From Nemertoderma westbladi (Eukaryota > Animalia > Xenacoelomorpha): a stretch of DNA of 34,752 nt. The stretch covers positions 1 to 34,752 of the forward strand of contig JAUCBJ010005200.1 in the NCBI GenBank assembly GCA_032718475.1, given 5' to 3'. Below, piece after piece: positions 26,223 to 34,453 of the stretch. The notes under the pieces are model-generated. The model was given only the letters and a program-made list of their open reading frames with translations. It had not been told where the DNA came from and ran no database searches. A program made the translations under genes and the position numbers. Position 1 is the first letter of the stretch. The number at the start of each line of letters is the position of its first letter.

Positions 26223-27372
26223 ATCTCGATTGCTTCAAAGCTATAACAGAATTTGAATCCCATCAGGGATCCTGTTGAGAGACTGTTACGTGGGAACCAA
26301 AATGGTTTCCGTAAATGTCGTGGGAGCTTGGAGCCCATTTTGGTACTTAGTTGAAGAGTTATCAAAAAAGAAAGACAGGCATCTAGCTGTTATCTTTGTT
26401 GACTTCTTCAAGGCCTTTGATTCAGTCTCTCGCTCACGTATGTTCAGCATACTTTCATTATATGGGATTCCTGATGAAATTATAGCAGCAATCAGATCAG
26501 TATACGATGGTTCGACAACATTTGTGACTACTGTTGATGGTAACACAGATCAATTCGACGTCTTATGGGGATTCCTCCAGGGTGACACATTTGCACCGTT
26601 CTTATTCGTAATTGTGGTTGGTTGTGTTCTACGCATGTCCTACCTTAGACCATCTTAATAGAGAAGGGGAGGGGTGATGGTAACACACCCTACTGGCACA
26701 AGAAGTAGAGGAAATACAGCAAAGGACCATACTGCTCTAGACTTTGCTGATGACGTAGGGGTACTGTCCGAATTACTAGAGGGACCCCAAAGGATCCTCT
26801 GCTCATTGGATCAGGTTTATTCTAGTGTTGGTCCTTTTGTACACTCCAAGAAGACTAGAATTATGACAAGGAAAGTTTACAGCCCTCAAGAAATGTCTGA
26901 TCTTCAGGGCATAGTCTGTCCATGGTATGGTCATGGCATGGTATTGTCTGTCCACAAGTTGGAAGTCCCGTAGAATATAACGGAACCTACTTGTATCAAT
27001 AACGATGAACACATCTCCAATCACACTATACAACCTTGGAGGTGTTTCACTGTAGTCTTAACTTGCTTGACACTTGAACGGAACCGCCTCCGCTTTGCAG
27101 GACATTGCTTTCGCCGTGAGGACCAGCCAGTGAATAATCTTGTGCTTTGGCAAGCTCATGGATTGAATTTGAATGGGGACAGCCCATGACTTTCTTTAGA
27201 CGCATCTTAAAGGACACCGGCCTTAAAGATGCGGATGATCTAGCAAATGTAATGGGTGATAGGGAGTTGTGGCGGCGCAATTTTGTCGACAAGCCGGGGC
27301 AGCATTCTCAATATATATGTAATATATATACTGCAGCTGCAATGCAGCATGCCGATAGAATAGCAGTAGTAG
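26223..27372 (+). mobile_element. 5'-truncated, degraded non-LTR retrotransposon (LINE, RTE-like), copy 1: RT fragment, C-terminus and TAG-rich tail
   Basis: RT motifs FVDFFKAFDSV and GFLQGDTFAPFLF (ORF 26275-26658) and LDFADDVG (FADD at 26743-26754); C-terminal RLRFAGHCFRR-coding DNA at ~27084-27116; frameshifts and stops; decayed tail TAGAATAGCAGTAGTAG at 27356-27372; colinear with the minus-strand copy. Only a weak TSD candidate (GTTTTAA 26217-26223 / 27376-27382). Clade assigned from motif recall only. Confidence 0.88.
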
Positions 27373-27868
27373 GAAGTTTTAAACCCACTAAACACATATT
27401 TGGTGTTTTGGGTTATTTTGCGCCATACTCAGATGTGTCATCATGATTCAAGGATGGCGTAATAATTGCATACTTAATTACTTGTGTTAGTGTCGGAGTG
27501 AACAAGGGTAATTAATAAGGCTAAGCATGAAACGGTACATAGCAATGAGACAGGAGAGGAAAACTGGGTTCTATTCCCATCTCGGCAAATTAGTATCTTG
27601 CCTCAATGTTCAATTATTAGTTTTAGAGAAAGGAGCAGATTGCAGTGACACGTTATTCTAACCAAAATAATAAACTAAAATCAATAGAACATGTTACAAT
27701 TTTATTTTTGAGAATAATCAGCTGTTAGATATTCCCCTGGAGAGGGATCTATATTGAAGGTATCTGCCCGACTCGGAACTCCAAACCGAAACCCCCCTCC
27801 CCCTACCGATTTGATAATAATACAGTATAAGTGAAAGTAATTAAGTTAAGGTACCTAAAAACTATAAC

Positions 27869-27880
27869 ATGTTAAACAAT
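27869..27880. other. Left target-site duplication of the 411-bp-unit insertion (ATGTTAAACAAT)
   Basis: Identical 12-mer at 27869-27880 and 30245-30256, abutting both ends of element-derived sequence. Confidence 0.85.
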
Positions 27881-27928
27881 TATTATAGGAAGGGATCTAG
27901 GGGTCTTAACCTCGAATGATAAGTTTAT
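27880..27928 (-). repeat. 49-bp inverted fragment of the 411-bp unit at the 5' end of the insertion
   Basis: TTATTATAGGAAGGGATCTAGGGGTCTTAACCTCGAATGATAAGTTTAT is the exact reverse complement of 28082-28130. Confidence 0.95.
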
Positions 27929-27945
27929 CGAAACGCGTACGTGGT
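27928..27945 (+). ncRNA. 3' half of a hammerhead ribozyme (truncated first copy)
   Basis: TCGAAACGCGTACGTGGT is present, but the CTGATGA and stem I 5' arm are replaced by the inverted segment. Confidence 0.8.
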
Positions 27946-28250
27946 TTGGAGGGATATGAGATATTAATTTCAAGAAAAATTACGCGATTCCTAAATTTGT
28001 ACACTACCCGGTTAAAAAGTACGCATTTGATGGGATTAGTCCTACAATTGCGCCAATAAAAGATAAGTTATTTTCGGTAAAATAAACTTATCATTCGAGG
28101 TTAAGACCCCTAGATCCCTTCCTATAATAAATGTATAATAACAAACACCTCGAAGAATACAGCTTGCCAACACATTGTTACTACCAATAATCAAAAATCA
28201 GGGGCTAATAAAATGGCAGCTGGCTTTGAAATTAATACGCCATATCTCAA

Positions 28251-28313
28251 GAACCTGTGGCCTAGTGGTTGTAGTCTCGGCTTCCACCTCGAGGTCCCCG
28301 GTTCGAATCCGAC
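28251..28313 (+). promoter_or_regulatory. tRNA-derived head with internal RNA Pol III promoter, copy 1
   Basis: A box TGGCCTAGTGG at 28258-28268 and B box GGTTCGAATCC at 28300-28310 with tRNA-like spacing; anticodon-like arm CTCGG-CTTCCAC-CTCGAG; no 3' acceptor strand. Confidence 0.88.
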
Positions 28314-28356
28314 ACCACGCTGATGAGACCCAGTAAGGTCGAAACGCGTACGTGGT
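28314..28356 (+). ncRNA. Minimal type I hammerhead ribozyme, copy 1 (predicted cleavage after A28350, GUA triplet)
   Basis: Stem I ACCACG/CGTGGT; core CTGATGA 28320-28326; stem II GACC-cagtaa-GGTC; GAAA 28341-28344; stem III reduced to palindrome ACGCGT 28344-28349; cleavage base A28350. Confidence 0.93.
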
Positions 28357-28661
28357 TTGGAGGGATATGAGATATTAATTTCAAGAAAAATTACGCGATT
28401 CCTAAATTTGTACACTACCCGGTTAAAAAGTACGCATTTGATGGGATTAGTCCTACAATTGCGCCAATAAAAGATAAGTTATTTTCGGTAAAATAAACTT
28501 ATCATTCGAGGTTAAGACCCCTAGATCCCTTCCTATAATAAATGTATAATAACAAACACCTCGAAAAATACAGCTTGCCAACACATTGTTACTACCAATA
28601 ATCAAAAATCAGGGGCTAATAAAATGGCAGCTGGCTTTGAAATTAATACGCCATATCTCAA

Positions 28662-28724
28662 GAACCTGTGGCCTAGTGGTTGTAGTCTCGGCTTCCACCT
28701 CGAGGTCCCCGGTTCGAATCCGAC
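28662..28724 (+). promoter_or_regulatory. tRNA-derived Pol III head, copy 2
   Basis: Identical to 28251-28313, shifted by 411. Confidence 0.88.
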
Positions 28725-28767
28725 ACCACGCTGATGAGACCCAGTAAGGTCGAAACGCGTACGTGGT
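28725..28767 (+). ncRNA. Minimal type I hammerhead ribozyme, copy 2 (cleavage after 28761)
   Basis: ACCACG CTGATGA GACC CAGTAA GGTC GAAA CGCG TA CGTGGT. Confidence 0.93.
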
Positions 28768-29072
28768 TTGGAGGGATATGAGATATTAATTTCAAGAAAA
28801 ATTACGCGATTCCTAAATTTGTACACTACCCGGTTAAAAAGTACGCATTTGATGGGATTAGTCCTACAATTGCGCCAATAAAAGATAAGTTATTTTCGGT
28901 AAAATAAACTTATCATTCGAGGTTAAGACCCCTAGATCCCTTCCTATAATAAATGTATAATAACAAACACCTCGAAAAATACAGCTTGCCAACACATTGT
29001 TACTACCAATAATCAAAAATCAGGGGCTAATAAAATGGCAGCTGGCTTTGAAATTAATACGCCATATCTCAA

Positions 29073-29135
29073 GAACCTGTGGCCTAGTGGTTGTAGTCTC
29101 GGCTTCCACCTCGAGGTCCCCGGTTCGAATCCGAC
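29073..29135 (+). promoter_or_regulatory. tRNA-derived Pol III head, copy 3
   Basis: Identical A and B boxes, shifted by 822. Confidence 0.88.
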
Positions 29136-29178
29136 ACCACGCTGATGAGACCCAGTAAGGTCGAAACGCGTACGTGGT
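29136..29178 (+). ncRNA. Minimal type I hammerhead ribozyme, copy 3 (cleavage after 29172)
   Basis: Same sequence as copy 1. Confidence 0.93.
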
Positions 29179-29483
29179 TTGGAGGGATATGAGATATTAA
29201 TTTCAAGAAAAATTACGCGATTCCTAAATTTGTACACTACCCGGTTAAAAAGTACGCATTTGATGGGATTAGTCCTACAATTGCGCCAATAAAAGATAAG
29301 TTATTTTCGGTAAAATAAACTTATCATTCGAGGTTAAGACCCCTAGATCCCTTCCTATAATAAATGTATAATAACAAACACCTCGAAAAATACAGCTTGC
29401 CAACACATTGTTACTACCAATAATCAAAAATCAGGGGCTAATAAAATGGCAGCTGGCTTTGAAATTAATACGCCATATCTCAA

Positions 29484-29546
29484 GAACCTGTGGCCTTGTG
29501 GTTGTAGTCTCGGCTTCCACCTCGAGGTCCCCGGTTCGAATCCGAC
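29484..29546 (+). promoter_or_regulatory. tRNA-derived Pol III head, copy 4, with an A-box point mutation
   Basis: A box reads TGGCCTTGTGG (A>T at 29497); B box intact. Confidence 0.8.
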
Positions 29547-29589
29547 ACCACGCTGATGAGACCCAGTAAGGTCGAAACGCGTACGTGGT
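29547..29589 (+). ncRNA. Minimal type I hammerhead ribozyme, copy 4 (cleavage after 29583)
   Basis: Same sequence as copy 1. Confidence 0.93.
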
Positions 29590-29894
29590 TTGGAGGGATA
29601 TGAGATATTAATTTCAAGAAAAATTACGCGATTCCTAAATTTGTACACTACCCGGTTAAAAAGTACGCATTTGATGGGATTAGTCCTACAATTGCGCCAA
29701 TAAAAGATAAGTTATTTTCGGTAAAATAAACTTATCATTCGAGGTTAAGACCCCTAGATCCCTTCCTATAATAAATGTATAATAACAAACACCTCGAAAA
29801 ATACAGCTTGCCAACACATTGTTACTACCAATAATCAAAAATCAGGGGCTAATAAAATGGCAGCTGGCTTTGAAATTAATACGCCATATCTCAA

Positions 29895-29957
29895 GAACCT
29901 GTGGCCTAGTGGTTGTAGTCTCGGCTTCCACCTCGAGGTCCCCGGTTCGAATCCGAC
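29895..29957 (+). promoter_or_regulatory. tRNA-derived Pol III head, copy 5
   Basis: Identical A and B boxes, shifted by 1644. Confidence 0.88.
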
Positions 29958-30000
29958 ACCACGCTGATGAGACCCAGTAAGGTCGAAACGCGTACGTGGT
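29958..30000 (+). ncRNA. Minimal type I hammerhead ribozyme, copy 5 (cleavage after 29994)
   Basis: Same sequence as copy 1. Confidence 0.93.
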
Positions 30001-30244
30001 TTGGAGGGATATGAGATATTAATTTCAAGAAAAATTACGCGATTCCTAAATTTGTACACTACCCGGTTAAAAAGTACGCATTTGATGGGATTAGTCCTAC
30101 AATTGCGCCAATAAAAGATAAGTTATTTTCGGTAAAATAAACTTATCATTCGAGGTTAAGACCCCTAGATCCCTTCCTATAATAAATGTATAATAACAAA
30201 CACCTCGAAAAATACAGCTTGCCAACACATTGTTACTACCAATA

Positions 30245-30256
30245 ATGTTAAACAAT
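30245..30256. other. Right target-site duplication of the 411-bp-unit insertion (ATGTTAAACAAT)
   Basis: The unit sequence (...CCAATAAT, normally followed by CAAAAATC) stops at 30246 and runs into the 12-mer also found at 27869-27880, with a 2-nt overlap. Confidence 0.85.
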
Positions 30257-30787
30257 GGAATAATTCTGAGAGAGTTCTAATTTTCTATTTTAAGTAAGAA
30301 TTAAATTAATGCCTGGCAGCATGGAAACATGGCGAGGATTGGAGGATGTGATGATGTGAATGGAATGGACAGTTTCACTAAAGTATAATAGTGGGGATGA
30401 TGTAGTGGGGATGATTTATACGGAGTTTCTATTGCTGTGTACCTATCAGCTGCCCTTCAGAGAGGGGGAAATCTGTGGCAGGATGTTTGAAGTCCGGCTG
30501 ATGTTCCTATACTACATACAGTTATATAGGCAGGATGGGTATTCAATCCCATTATATTCAGCACGTGCGCATCTATCTGTAACAGTCAGGCTCAGGATTC
30601 ATTTCATACGGTACATTTTTATTTTCCTATCATTCTGTTCGCAATGAAACTAAATTAAAAGTATAAAAGTGACAAGGACGTGCGAATAATCTTCATTAAT
30701 TAATCCTGAGGGCGGCTCATATTTCAATATTTTTGGAGAGAGAGAGCCGAGCGGTGAGCGCCCAGACTGACTGAGTATAGGCGTATG

Positions 30788-30846
30788 AGGCGGGGGGGGG
30801 GGGGGCTGGGGGCTGGGGGCTGGGGGGTGGGGCTACAGCCCCCCAG
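30788..30846 (+). repeat. G-rich low-complexity tract (poly-G, (GGGGGCT)n) ending in hairpin GGGGCT-AC-AGCCCC; G-quadruplex-capable
   Basis: At least five runs of four or more G with 1-2 nt spacers. Possibly the end of a small non-autonomous element (unverified). Confidence 0.7.
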
Positions 30847-31031: not shown

Positions 31032-32751
31032 CTACTACTACTAGGATCGGCATGCTGCATTGCCGCTGCATTTTTAAGAATGCTGTGCCGGCTTGTCGAC
31101 AAAATTGCGCCGCCACAACTCCCTATCACCCATGACATTTGCTAGATCATCCGCATCTTCAAGGCCTTTAAGATGCGTCCCAAGAAAGTCATGGGCTGTC
31201 TACCATGCTTATTCACTCCATGAGGCTGCCAAAGTACAAGATTATGTACTGGCTGGTCCTCACGGCGAAAGCAATGTCCTGCAAAGCGGAGGCGATTTTG
31301 TTCTAGTGTCAAGCTTGGGGGAACCAATGAGACACCTCCAATGTTATATAGTGCCTGGATGGAGATGTGTGCATTGTACTTGACACAATGAACCCGGCGT
31401 AGCATTCTTGTGAATGTGCCATCCAGAGATTTGGTGTCCTCAGCAGTTAGAGCCCAGCATGGACTCCCATAGAGGAGTACTGGAACTACTGCTGCTCTAA
31501 ATAATCGGACCTTAAGTTTCCGAATAATTCTCGGTGACTTCCAAATCCTGGAAAGCCTATTCAAGGTTGCCCATGCCTTTCCCTTACGTATTCGAAGGTC
31601 CTCACCTGACTTCCGGATCCATGATCCCAGGTAACAGAAGTCGTCCACATGCTCAAGCATACCATCCTTTTAGCTTATGCTCATCCGATCAGAGACTTGC
31701 TGAGGACTTTCAAAGTTAACTGTCAAAATTTTGGTCTTTCTGGCGTTAATAAAAAGACCAACACTAGAAGCAGCATGTTCTAATTAACTGAGGAGCCGTT
31801 GGGTTTCCTCTAGTGATTCTGAGAGTACTCCTAAGTCTTCAGCAAAGTCTAGTTCAGTTAGGTACTTGGCAGGATTTCCTCGACTTCTGGAGCCAGTAGG
31901 TGGAGGACAATTATGAACAAGAATGGTGCAAGTGTGTCTCCATGGAGGACGCCCCATAACACTTCAAATGGTTCTGTGTCACCATCAACAGTAGACACAA
32001 ATGTTGTCGAACCATCGTATACTGATCTGATTGCTGCAATAATTTCATCAGGAATCCCATATAATGAAAGTATGCTGAACATACGTGAGCGGGAGACTGA
32101 ATCAAAGGCCTTGAAGAAGTCAACAAAGATAACAGCCAGATGCATGTCTTTCTTTTTTGATAACTCTTCAATTATCCTTCTAAGTGCCAAAATGGGCTCC
32201 ATGGTCCCACGACCTTTACGGAACCCATTCTGATTTCCACGGAGCAGTCTCTCAATGGGATCCCTGATGCGATTTAATATAATTCTATTGTATAGCTTTG
32301 CAGCAATCGAGATCAATGAGATTCCCCGAAAAGAACCATAGAGTGTTAGGTTGCCCTTCTTGGGAACTGGCACCAACTTATTTGTTTTAATTTCTTGTGG
32401 GACTCTTGTTGTTCGGTACATGTCTACTATGATAGGATTGAGCGATGAGATATGATGGGCTTTAAACACTCAGGTATTTTAAAGACCTCAGGGGGAACAC
32501 CATCTTCTCCACTGGCACGATTGGTCTTAATGCTCTTTGCAGCAACCTTCACTTCTGCAAAGGAGATATCGCCAATGGGAATATCTGGGAGTACAGACTC
32601 AGACACTTTTACTTCTATAAAGTTATCAGCAATACCCTGTCATTATTGAGGAGCTTTTCAAAGTGGGCCTTCCAACCATTGAGGCGATCGGCTGGTGATT
32701 CAGCCTTAACCTTGGTGGTTGGTTGGCTTTTCCGCCCAGTAAGAATATATA
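31032..32751 (-). mobile_element. 5'-truncated non-LTR retrotransposon (LINE, RTE-like), copy 2, with (TAG)4 tail and 10-bp TSD
   Basis: Tail (CTA)4 on + at 31032-31043; TACTATAGAA duplicated at 31022-31031 and 32752-32761; RT-coding fragments in between. Confidence 0.92.
31142..32745 (-). pseudogene. Fragmented ORF2 reverse transcriptase of LINE copy 2
   Basis: LVPVPKKGNL-FRGISLISIAAKLY-NQNGFRKGRGT-FVDFFKAFDSV-GVLHGDTLAPFLF (ORF 31858-32469); catalytic motif degraded to DFAED (31835-31849); VDDFCYLGSW, LLYGSPCWAL and RLRFAGHCFRR (ORF 31142-31660); several frameshifts and a deletion near 31903; no endonuclease domain retained. Confidence 0.9.
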
Positions 32752-33313
32752 TACTATAGAAACCAGAATCATAGTAGTCACTTACACGTACATTATATGA
32801 TAAATTACAAGCGAGAACAAGATAATATAAGTATCCTGGCAATATTTACAAAAAAACTTGAGAATTGGGCAATGATGCTGGCGCCTGGTTGCTTGCAGCC
32901 CATAAAACAGGCAGCAGCAGCATGATTAATGTTGTTTACCCAAACTGGAAGTAATTGCAGTATTTACTACTTTGAACACTTGCAGTATTGCATTAATACA
33001 GAACATACAATAACTGTAATAAGATTAATAAAAATAGTTCCTGATGTACCGGTGCGTACAAACGCAAACACAATTGTCTAAGATAACATATTTAGATTAA
33101 TATTTACTTACGTTACAGATATACATATAATTTACTTAAATTGTTAAACAATCACAGTAGGTATATACTACCGGTAGTTATTTTTTTCACAGTTATAATG
33201 TTAAACAATCGCAGTTTAATCTCCATGTACAGTTTACCAGTGCCGGATTAACTTTACCAGCGCAGTTTACCTATCGTATCGTTTATGTAACTGTTATGAT
33301 TCTATTATTATAT

Positions 33314-34453
33314 TGTTCGTGTTTCAGTGGATCCTTCGTGTCGCCTCCGGGTTCGTGTTTCAGTGGATCCTTCGTGTCGCCTCCGGTGTTCGTGTTTCAG
33401 TGGATCCTTCGTGTCGCCTCCGGTGTTCGTGTTTCAGTGGATCCTTCGGTCGCCTCCGGTTCGTGTTTCAGTGGATCCCTTGGGTCGCCTCCGGTGTTCG
33501 TGTTTCAGTGGATCCCTTGGGTCGCCTCCGGTGTTCGTGTTTCAGTGGATCCCTTCGGGTCGCCTCCGGTGTTCGTATTTCAGTGGATCCCTTGGGTCGC
33601 CTCTGGTGTTCGTGTTTCAGTGGATCCCTCGGTTCGCCTCCGGTGTTCGTGTTTCAGTGGATCCTTCGGGTCGCCTCCGGTGTTCGTGTTTCAGTGGATC
33701 CCTTGGGTCGCCTCCGGTGTTCGTGTTTCAGTGGATCCTTCGGGTCGCCTCTGGTGTTCGTGTTTCAGTGGATCCCTTCGGGTCGCCTCCGGTGTTCGTG
33801 TTTCAGTGGATCCCTTGGGTCGCCTCCGGTGTTCGTGTTTCAGTGGATCCTTCGGGTCGCCTCCTGGTGTTCGTGTTTCAGTGGATCCTTCGGGTCGCCT
33901 CCGGTGTTCGTGTTTCAGTGGATCCCTTGGGTCGCCTCCGGTGTTCGTGTTTCAGTGGATCCTTCGGGTCGCCTCCGGTGTTCGTGTTTCAGTGGATCCC
34001 TTGGGTCGCCTCCGGTGTTCGTGTTTCAGTGGATCCCTTCGGGTCGCCTCCGGTGTTCGTGTTTCAGTGGATCCTTCGGGTCGCCTCCGGTGTTCGTGTT
34101 TCAGTGGATCCCTTCGGGTCGCCTCCGGTGTTCGTGTTTCAGTGGATCCTTCGGGTCGCCTCTGGTGTTCGTGTTTCAGTGGATCCCTTGGGTCGCCTCC
34201 GGTGTTCGTGTTTCAGTGGATCCCTTGGGTCGCCTCCGGTGTTCGTGTTTCAGTGGATCCTTCGGGTCGCCTCCTGGTGTTCGTGTTTCAGTGGATCCCT
34301 TCGGGTCGCCTCCGGTGTTCGTGTTTCAGTGGATCCTTCGGGTCGCCTCCGGTGTTCGTGTTTCAGTGGATCCCTTCGGGTCGCCTCCGGTGTTCGTGTT
34401 TCAGTGGATCCCTTGGGTCGCCTCCGGTGTTCGTGTTTCAGTGGATCCTTCGT
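33314..34453. repeat. 37-bp GC-rich minisatellite, ~31 copies: GTTCGTGTTTCAGTGGATCC(TTCG/CTTG/CTTCG)GGTCGCCTCCGGT
   Basis: Period 37 (e.g. 33388 to 33425) with 35-38 bp variants; one GGATCC per unit; sharp borders with AT-rich flanks. Confidence 0.97.

Follow-up and report, generated by a model that had tools for sequence, protein, structure and literature searches.

Positions 27881-30244 of the window, the stretch of 34,752 nucleotides of DNA analysed here, hold a polymorphic insertion with a target-site duplication, which is missing from other individuals. The insert is two-armed, a short inverted arm standing head-to-head with a direct array of 411-bp units; their number, 5.64, is that counted in the assembly. 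Most likely, a single round of retrotransposition gave the arm and the 5.64 units together: priming would have taken place on each of the two nicked strands, and a putative Penelope-like reverse transcriptase would have used a repeat RNA, either circular or multimeric, as its template. It is only the anatomy of the insert that points to an enzyme of the Penelope-like kind. The features of the locus are collected in Table 1.

Table 1. Features of the insertion and its neighbourhood (window positions).
Feature	Position	Strand	Evidence and remarks
LINE-type RVT_1 remnant	26257-26658	+	28 bits
Left target-site duplication copy, ATGTTAAACAAT	27869..27880		Exact match; single copy in empty-allele contigs
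Inverted arm; copies unit phases 144-190 in reverse complement and stands head-to-head with array	27881..27927 (+/-1)	-	Unit comparison; blastn
Direct array, 5.64 units x 411 bp, phase 400 to phase 250-252	27928..30246	+	TRF; unit comparison; blastn
Partial ribozyme, 3' part only, without CUGAUGA box	27928-27960	+	Sequence reading
A>G, private to unit 1	28155	+	Unit comparison
A-box-like motif, TGGCCTAGTGG	28258-28268	+	Pattern match; just upstream of ribozyme; repeats each 411 bp
B-box-like motif, GGTTCGAATCC	28300-28310	+	Pattern match; likewise just upstream of ribozyme; repeats each 411 bp
First complete type I hammerhead (predicted), cut after 28350	28304..28371	+	Hammerhead_HH9 match; motifs read directly
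Identical hammerheads (predicted)	28715-28782, 29126-29193, 29537-29604, 29948-30015	+	Cuts after 28761, 29172, 29583, 29994
A>T, private to unit 4	29497	+	Unit comparison; breaks the A-box match of unit 4
Right target-site duplication copy, ATGTTAAACAAT	30245..30256		Exact match; empty-allele contigs
LINE-type RVT_1 remnant	31858-32469	-	66.6 bits

The two exact copies of ATGTTAAACAAT that flank the insert had been pointed out in the original prediction and are as described there. Of the 12-bp duplication claimed, the exact 12-mer stands, but the length becomes 10-12 bp once the junction overlaps are counted: one nucleotide on the left, where the last base of the duplication copy (27880) could equally be counted as the start of the inverted arm, and two on the right, where the last two nucleotides of the array (AT) overlap the duplication copy. 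Locally, a match at any one site has a probability of 0.26, and the chance of agreement for a given pair of 12-mers is therefore about 1e-7; at the same spacing, none of 44,512 pairs in local non-satellite DNA match. Allowing at most one mismatch, the 12-mer occurs four times in the window, against 0.48 expected, and four or more matches were found in none of 100 shuffles. The other two matches, at 33198 (exact) and 33141 (one mismatch), lie inside an unrelated local 57-bp duplication. The third exact 12-mer, at 33198, was rejected as a related site, sharing no further similarity with the target site.

The empty allele, predicted as 27868 continuing through a single ATGTTAAACAAT, was found in contigs of two public DNA runs, from two samples and two studies: record 2 of run X1 (704 nt, depth 12) and record 9 of run X2 (718 nt, depth 17). 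Both contigs cover 27693-27868 and then continue from 30245 onward, with one 12-mer and zero extra letters at the join. Both differ from the window flank at 30304 and 30348 and thus belong to another haplotype; between filled and empty alleles, the flanks show 2-3 differences per ~700 nt.

The direct array is composed of units only (blastn), with a GC content of 40.1%. TRF reports a period of 411, 5.6 copies, 99% matches and 0 indels, and the 2319/411 = 5.64 near-identical units claimed beforehand were recovered. The unit comparison gives two substitutions in 2319 nt, which, judged from the sequence, indicates that the insertion is young. Relative to the reference unit, the five full units in cut-site phase show 1, 0, 0, 1 and 0 differences, and the final 252 nt of the array are identical to it. 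At about 5-6 positions, all units agree on a letter that nearly all contig depth of the family in runs X1 and X2 replaces by another, most clearly at 28027/30082, 28299/29943, 28363/30007, 29828 and 29883; this fits a single source. The unit variant with T at 29497 apparently also exists elsewhere in both runs, on a soft reading; if it was inherited, a heterogeneous linear multimer would fit better than a single circle. The zero contig depth over 28704-29405 is not a finding, the aligner having put multi-copy contigs on the outer units.

The direct array starts 12 nt ahead of the ribozyme cut, at phase 400, and ends at phase 250-252. Its ends are thus off the cut site and circularly permuted, as had been anticipated. 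Neither a poly(A) stretch, an A-run nor a microsatellite is present at the array end, where the sequence closes with CTACCAATA followed by AT; the earlier statement that a poly(A) or simple-repeat tail is absent was correct.

All element-derived sequence between the 12-mers had been taken for array. This holds for 27928-30246, but the first 47-49 nt are an inverted copy that had been overlooked, the range in length arising as 27880 and 27928 also fit (phases 143/144-190/191). The reverse complement of the arm is exact to all six copies of that phase, and blastn stretches the match to 57 nt at 96.5%. The arm and the array start are not contiguous in phase (143/144 versus 400), and snap-back hairpin priming was rejected as the origin of the arm for this reason, the arm spanning phases 143/144-191. 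In our reading, the arm is a short cDNA for which the nick in the top strand supplied the primer: with RNA phases 191-199, the final 9 nt of this primer pair at 7 of 9 positions, which ranks first among the 411 phases. At this single locus, the inverted arm starts at phase 190/191 and the direct arm at 250-252, 60 nt apart, so that phases 192-251 (60 nt) are extra at the right end only. The inverted arm points to priming on both DNA strands and is the most informative detail of the locus. The earlier reading as a target-primed insertion agrees with the junctions: they carry short overlaps, as target-primed reverse transcription would be expected to leave.

A joint of opposite strands at 27921/30027 was considered as a sign of other inversions and rejected, as it stems from deletion-variant contigs mapped onto the inverted arm of the window. 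Loose contig ends in X5 fall at phases 201 and 244, near both start points; these are single contigs among the rows listed (18 of 737) and were not counted.

Each complete unit is predicted to contain a dimer-type hammerhead ribozyme. The Hammerhead_HH9 model matches 5/5 complete units with 26.2 bits (E 9.6e-05 on 201 nt), a score below the Rfam gathering score of 52, and in each of them the CUGAUGA and GAAAC motifs, both helix I and helix II, and the GUA cut triplet can be read directly. The cut, between GCGTA and CGTGG, is at 27939/40 and repeats each 411 nt. Helix III is formed by the palindrome ACGCGU only, in which ACG meets CGU without a loop, leaving no helix III hairpin, and the ribozyme is assigned to the dimer type on this account. 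Co-folding of a dimer gives -54.3 kcal/mol versus 2 x -23.0 kcal/mol, a gain of 8.3 kcal/mol, with a 6-bp intermolecular ACGCGU helix. Minimal hammerheads of the dimer type are reported for Penelope-like elements and amphibian retrozymes in the available text of PMC7761336. Ribozyme pattern scans of metagenome contigs and genome contigs gave 0 matches, and the 26-nt ribozyme core string was not found in the literature searched.

The unit also contains box-like motifs, found with consensus patterns for the A and B boxes of pol III type-2 promoters. It has a single T4, at phase 132, as a possible pol III stop. The B box is matched in 5/5 units (0.03 expected) and the A box in 4/5 (0.54 expected). 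The tRNA head proposed earlier was not borne out: ARAGORN finds 0 genes and the Rfam tRNA model has no match at E<=10, so that only A-box- and B-box-like motifs are left. The monomer RNA has a minimum free energy of -102.4 kcal/mol (z -2.85), with 1/100 shuffles folding equally well; folded as a circle, it has a z of -2.70 and 57% of its bases are paired. A 441-nt contig of X4, a run of organism B whose kind was guessed to be RNA, matches 29747-30187 with six differences. It was rejected as evidence for a circle or for expression: 441 nt is 411 + 30, the length of a closed cycle at a word size of 31, and a tandem gives an equal length.

Stop-to-stop frames in the unit reach 95 aa at most. A Penelope-like open reading frame (telomerase-like reverse transcriptase plus GIY-YIG) is absent from both unit and window, the frames of at least 80 aa in the 25-34.7 kb region including only LINE-type RVT_1; the unit is therefore at most a non-autonomous passenger. 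Between the unit and the LINE remnants of the window, blastn detects no shared 3' tail.

In the proposed mechanism, the target would be nicked at two staggered positions 12 bp apart, both at 5'-AT^G. The bottom-strand 3' end would start a cDNA in the loop of a local stem-loop, at RNA phase 250-252, where no more than 2 nt overlap, and this long cDNA would run for 5.64 unit lengths, across five intact cut sites and part of a sixth ribozyme. The top-strand 3' end would anneal at phases 191-199 and give a 48-nt cDNA in the opposite direction; the two cDNAs would then join at the 1-nt overlap, and gap filling would duplicate the 12 bp. The array crosses the cuts and ends 12 nt before a cut on one side and at phase 250-252 on the other, therefore the template was not a cleaved linear monomer. 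It may have been a 411-nt RNA circle or an uncleaved multimeric transcript. More speculatively, the locus could be regarded as a before-and-after pair in which the whole array was written at once: a Penelope-type enzyme, with both strands primed, would have gone more than five times round a 411-nt circle, making the short arm by annealing and the long arm from a structure-defined internal site. We put this version forward tentatively and consider it doubtful.

The insert closely resembles the metazoan non-LTR retrozymes of Cervera and de la Pena (2020), which the available text of PMC7229834 describes as low-GC tandems of 150-450 bp, from dimers to multimers, with a type I hammerhead per unit, no LTR, PBS or PPT, expression of linear and circular monomer RNA, strong self-pairing of the monomer RNA, and a target duplication that exceeds the 4 bp known from plant retrozymes. 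[quoted passage not shown] In contrast to the retrozymes as described in the available parts of PMC7229834 and PMC7761336, both the before and the after state of one insertion are seen here, and there is an inverted 5' arm; the present unit also differs in having A-box- and B-box-like motifs. In the retrozyme model, as far as these sources present it, circRNA is copied to tandem cDNA and then integrated (PMC7229834; PMC7761336 Figure 2), and Penelope-like elements are named as candidate helper (PMC7229834; PMC7761336).

Penelope-like elements themselves form partial-tandem insertions whose 5' end frequently carries a 5'-truncated copy in inverted orientation, and they have a one-sided tail, according to the available portion of PMC8557442. 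Whole inserts with the tandem-plus-inverted shape have 8-10-bp duplications, and pLTR sequences alone can mobilise foreign sequence in trans (PMC3846280, in the text available). In purified form, a Penelope-like protein cuts both strands and extends them, prefers AT-rich DNA, initiates reverse transcription internally, within a stem-loop and at a position lacking homology with the target, and is described with multi-copy unprocessed RNA as template (PMC11167929). The present insert is similar in its multiple and partial tandem, in the inverted 5'-truncated copy placed head-to-head at the 5' end, in having extra sequence at one end only, in its AT-rich target and short duplication (10-12 versus 8-10 bp), and in its minimal, dimer-requiring hammerhead; an internal stem-loop start without target homology, as we infer it here, would be a further likeness. 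Unlike autonomous Penelope-like elements, unit and window lack the reverse transcriptase and GIY-YIG frame. Against the Penelope-type reading stand this missing frame, the distance of 60 nt between the start points, versus 30-40 nt for the Penelope tail, given as 30-40 bp at one end, between two fixed reverse transcription start sites, in the accessible text of PMC8557442, and the reverse-transcriptase remnants nearby, which are LINE-type only.

A short non-coding repeat with pol III-like promoter motifs and a hammerhead also recalls the SINE-like elements Sm-alpha and Sj-alpha of schistosomes, for which a tRNA-related pol III promoter region, a hammerhead and a high copy number are given in the available text of PMC2770079. 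Compared by description, the present unit differs in that no tRNA fold is detectable and the ribozyme sequence is another. It is also unlike a tRNA-derived SINE in having neither a LINE-related 3' tail (within the window) nor a poly(A) or simple-repeat end.

L1 5' inversions by twin priming combine a 5' segment in inverted orientation with an intact duplication, short junction overlaps and a second primer that anneals internally, and the present insert is like them in each of these features. If a LINE enzyme had carried out a one-step target-primed insertion by classical twin priming, with no Penelope-like element involved, the inverted 5' piece, duplication and overlaps would be its signature. 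Also in favour of this, top-strand priming appears guided by annealing, and RVT_1 remnants flank the site. We nevertheless consider this rather unlikely: the poly(A) or simple-repeat tail is missing, the target is not of L1 type, the inferred nicks being AT^G and not of the TTTT/AA type, the unit shares no 3' tail with the LINE remnants of the window, and the tandem-plus-inverted shape with a minimal dimeric hammerhead is a stated hallmark of Penelope-like elements. A further difference from L1 lies in the template, a repeat or a circle, on which the inverted piece has no definable place upstream or downstream relative to the direct part.

Whether the insert arrived at full length is a separate question. 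An array of at least two units can expand by whole units and keep its non-integer remainder, the units carry nothing that dates them separately, and the contigs of the runs give no unit count; a shorter insert (of 1.64 units and the inverted arm, say) might have grown to 5.64 by unequal crossing-over or replication slippage. Such growth is unlikely, given that the insert is still polymorphic, that each of the two changes in 2319 nt is private to one unit, and that the allele flanks differ at 2-3 of about 700 nt, several rounds of expansion in a short time being needed; published families, from dimers to 62-mers, are read as multimeric on arrival in the available text of PMC7229834. Circular or tandem DNA captured at a staggered double-strand break, for instance from a rolling-circle-amplified extrachromosomal circle, would likewise be expected to show permuted ends, no tail and a copy number that is not an integer. 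However, two-sided target priming predicts the precise 12-bp duplication, the 1-2-nt overlaps and a short head-to-head arm that starts where the free 3' end finds its best complement, and the unit has promoter-like boxes and a ribozyme and belongs to a class documented as RNA-borne (in the parts available of PMC7229834 and PMC7761336), making capture at the DNA level highly improbable.

The rolling-circle or multimer idea is itself already published as the retrozyme model, in which the integration of tandem cDNA is a model drawn from genome anatomy, to judge from the available text of PMC7229834 and PMC7761336. The block is a clean, young, polymorphic example of a known retrozyme-type insertion, and the existing retrozyme picture is supported, not changed. 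Being young and still polymorphic, it gives this model a concrete test object: its boundaries are exact, its empty allele is known, and it has an inverted arm besides the direct one. From the junctions, the DNA ends that served as primers and their places on the RNA can be read, and genotyping of the locus in a population would address whether arrays arrive as multimers. The two-strand reading also connects non-coding ribozyme repeats with an in vitro result, the priming on two strands by a Penelope-like enzyme (PMC11167929). If the circle reading is true, a satellite seed, in the form of a whole multi-copy ribozyme array, would enter a chromosome in a single step.

The insertion is bounded on both sides by exact copies of the 12-mer ATGTTAAACAAT, as had been predicted. 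Single sites of the local non-satellite DNA match with a probability of 0.26, which puts the chance of a match between two given 12-mers at about 1e-7; none of the 44,512 pairs taken from this DNA at the same spacing matched. Allowing up to one mismatch, the motif occurs four times in the window, against 0.48 expected (at least four in 0 of 100 shuffles). The other two occurrences, at 33198-33209 (exact) and 33141-33152 (one mismatch), are 57 bp apart and sit within a local 57-bp duplication (TGTTAAACAATCRCAGT...) unrelated to the insertion; beyond the 12-mer, no similarity was found between them and the insertion site, and they could reflect chance or a small common motif.

The original prediction of near-identical units in a non-integer copy number also held, with two substitutions in 2319 nt over 5.6 copies. 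With unit boundaries set at the ribozyme cut, the mismatches of the five full units to the reference unit number 1, 0, 0, 1 and 0, and the last 252 nt are identical to it. Neither poly(A) nor a simple repeat is present at either end, again as predicted. What had been overlooked is that the array is preceded, from the left 12-mer onwards, by a stretch in the opposite orientation. One more base fits at either end of this inverted arm (27880 and 27928); blastn reports the arm as 57 nt at 96.5% identity, with seven of nine further positions matching into the 12-mer. The insert is thus two-armed, head-to-head. The inverted arm measures 47-49 nt, with its outer end at phase 190/191 of the unit (phase 1 being the first base 3' of the ribozyme cut), and the direct arm 2317-2319 nt, running from phase 400 on the inner side to phase 250-252 on the outer. 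The junctions overlap by 1 nt (left duplication and inverted arm), 1 nt (inverted arm and array) and 2 nt (array and right duplication). Apart from the two arms, blastn found no copies of the unit in the window.

Features of the insertion and of the neighbouring sequence
Feature	Position	Strand	Evidence
LINE-type RVT_1 remnant	26257-26658	+	28 bits
Target-site duplication, left copy ATGTTAAACAAT	27869-27880		exact match
Inverted arm	27881-27927	-	exact reverse complement of unit phases 144-190, against all 6 copies of those phases
Direct array, 411-bp period, 5.6 copies	27928-30246	+	Tandem Repeats Finder: 99% matches, no indels; copies as assembled
Substitution A>G, unit 1	28155		unit-by-unit comparison
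Substitution A>T, unit 4	29497		unit-by-unit comparison
Target-site duplication, right copy ATGTTAAACAAT	30245-30256		exact match
LINE-type RVT_1 remnant	31858-32469	-	66.6 bits

Seven public sequencing runs were found with the whole region, and the contigs of four were aligned to 27300-30800. In two of these, X1 and X2, which are separate samples from separate studies of one coded organism, position 27868 is joined straight to 30245, with a single 12-mer and no element sequence, which is the empty allele that the original prediction implied. In the X1 contig (704 nt, depth 12), letters 529-704 correspond to 27693-27868 and letters 1-528 to 30245-30772; in the X2 contig (718 nt, depth 17), letters 1-176 correspond to 27693-27868, followed from letter 177 by 30245-30779. 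Both deviate from the flank in the window at 30304 and 30348, placing the empty site on a different haplotype, and the X2 contig additionally has a difference at 27797 and two small deletions. It is formally possible that these contigs derive from a near-identical paralogue; either way, they give the pre-insertion sequence.

The ribozyme-repeat family is very abundant, with a summed contig depth of 1e5 compared to about 12-17 for the single-copy flank. At some five to six positions, all units of the array carry one letter, whereas almost the entire contig depth of the family in X1 and X2 has another, which fits one source for all units. In these two runs, contigs of other family copies lack internal stretches of the unit, some of about 50-110 nt and others of about 330-500 nt (window 27995-28558; for example, 27995 joined to 28048 and 28071 to 28554), so the family has length variants. 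A further run, X4, from a differently labelled organism, contains one 441-nt contig on 29747-30187, with six differences from the window. Its length is one unit plus 30; a 411-nt sequence closed on itself, whether as circle or as tandem, would give such a length at a word size of 31.

Most of the window is occupied by a 25-kb satellite at 69-25086 (21-bp unit, about 1190 copies, 77% matches; higher-order period of 104 bp, 88% matches), and a second one lies at 33314-34452 (37-bp unit, about 31 copies, 93% matches; higher-order periods of 75 and 112 bp). In the left flank, 27300-27416 and 27534-27767 belong to other high-copy repeats (summed contig depth between 5e3 and 1e5, where single-copy sequence has about 12-17), with numerous contigs branching off at 27356/27358, 27628 and 27727. 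One LINE-type retrotransposon is represented by two decayed copies, at 26257-27446 (+) and 31078-32469 (-), which lie tail-to-tail around the insertion site; they have a weak DUF6451 match and share a 41-nt stretch that is 85% alike (27332-27372 and 31070-31032). The ribozyme array is inserted among older repeats. The reverse-transcriptase remnants near it are of LINE type only; no 3' tail common to the LINE-type copies and the ribozyme unit was found in the window, and the window contains no Penelope-like ORF.

The unit has a GC content of 40.1%, and T4 occurs once on its + strand, at phase 132. Folding of the monomer RNA gives -102.4 kcal/mol (z -2.85, equalled by one of 100 shuffles) and, as a circle, -97.1 kcal/mol (z -2.70, 57% paired). 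The predicted tRNA head was not borne out: ARAGORN found no tRNA genes and the Rfam tRNA model had no hit at E<=10, leaving only A- and B-box-like motifs just upstream of the ribozyme. These promoter-like matches, to pol III consensus patterns, occur in 5/5 units for the B-box (0.03 expected) and 4/5 for the A-box (0.54 expected), the A-box of the fifth unit being broken by the change at 29497. The Rfam hammerhead HH9 matches all five complete units at 26.2 bits, below its gathering score of 52 (E = 0.0047 in 9.7 kb, 9.6e-05 in 201 nt). By direct inspection, it is a type I hammerhead, with helix I CCACG / CGUGG, extended further, a CUGAUGA box, helix II GACC-CAGUAA-GGUC, GAAAC and, following GUA, the cut. 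Helix III is ACG/CGU alone, without a loop, and is thus unable to close inside a single motif; ACGCGU is palindromic, and two 87-nt ribozyme segments are predicted to cofold through an intermolecular ACGCGU helix at -54.3 kcal/mol, compared to 2 x -23.0. By this modelling, the ribozyme is of the minimal dimer-dependent hammerhead type, which PMC7761336 describes from Penelope-like elements as well as from amphibian repeats.

The empty site reads ...CTATAAC/ATGTTAAACAAT/GGAATAA..., and 12 duplicated base pairs imply that the bottom strand was nicked at the left slash and the top strand at the right one, in both cases at 5'-AT^G. The long arm would be primed by the 3' end of the bottom strand (...TTTAACAT), beginning at RNA phase 250-252. 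Pairing there is limited to the terminal 2 nt, and over 9 nt as many as 32 of the 411 phases are equally or more complementary, so this start is not explained by annealing; in the predicted fold it falls in the loop of a local stem-loop (phases ~221-283). The short inverted arm would be primed by the 3' end of the top strand (...TAAACAAT), the last 9 nt of which pair at 7/9 positions with phases 191-199, the unique best among the 411 phases; from sequence complementarity, this start looks annealing-guided. Simple snap-back priming of the inverted arm was rejected, its phase not being contiguous with the array start. At this single locus, template AAUA directly precedes copying in both arms (phases 187-190 and 247-250); AATAA occurs six times in the unit.

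Target-primed insertion, as originally proposed, is supported by the empty allele, while the rolling-circle part of that proposal, already the textbook model for the retrozyme class, is unproven here. Five intact cut sites lie within the long arm, which stops 12 nt past a sixth, in helix II; RNA cleaved at those sites is therefore excluded as its template. The sequence is compatible with an RNA circle and with an uncleaved linear multimer alike. The circle is the published model for retrozymes, in which primed circRNA gives tandem cDNA that integrates (PMC7229834; PMC7761336, Figure 2). The multimer is favoured by in vitro work on purified Penelope-like protein, for which ribozyme cleavage is dispensable and a multi-copy transcript is envisaged as template (PMC11167929). 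Units with T at 29497 seemingly exist elsewhere in X1 and X2, which, if inherited, would favour a heterogeneous multimer, softly given their ambiguous contig placement. As to timing, the array may have been laid down in one step or grown later from a shorter insert. The insert is young, being still polymorphic with two private changes in 2319 nt, and the flanks of the two alleles differ at 2-3 of ~700 nt; this youth argues for, but does not prove, one step.

According to PMC7229834, animal type I hammerheads occur in tandem repeats of 150-450 bp, low in GC and without LTR, PBS or PPT, with duplications of >4 bp "when present", arrays from dimers to 62-mers, and RNAs both linear and circular. 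PMC7229834 and PMC7761336 propose LINEs or Penelope-like elements as helpers, favouring the latter, and a 2026 preprint argues on phylogenetic grounds that vertebrate non-LTR retrozymes originated from Penelope pLTRs. In combining pol III boxes with a hammerhead, the unit resembles the schistosome SINE-like elements Sm-alpha and Sj-alpha (PMC2770079). Penelope-like insertions take the form of partial tandems (PMC8557442); often, their 5' end bears a 5'-truncated copy in inverted orientation, and one of the ends a tail of 30-40 bp. For whole tandem-plus-inverted inserts, PMC3846280 gives duplications of 8-10 bp; in the same source, pLTR sequences are sufficient to mobilise foreign sequence in trans. 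Purified Penelope-like protein cleaves and extends both DNA strands in vitro (PMC11167929). The two-armed anatomy is reproduced here in a non-coding repeat, although the segment found only at the right end, phases 192-251, is 60 nt rather than 30-40. Judging solely from this anatomy, we infer that the acting enzyme was of Penelope type. The locus is a genotypable before-and-after example linking ribozyme repeats to Penelope-type two-strand priming.
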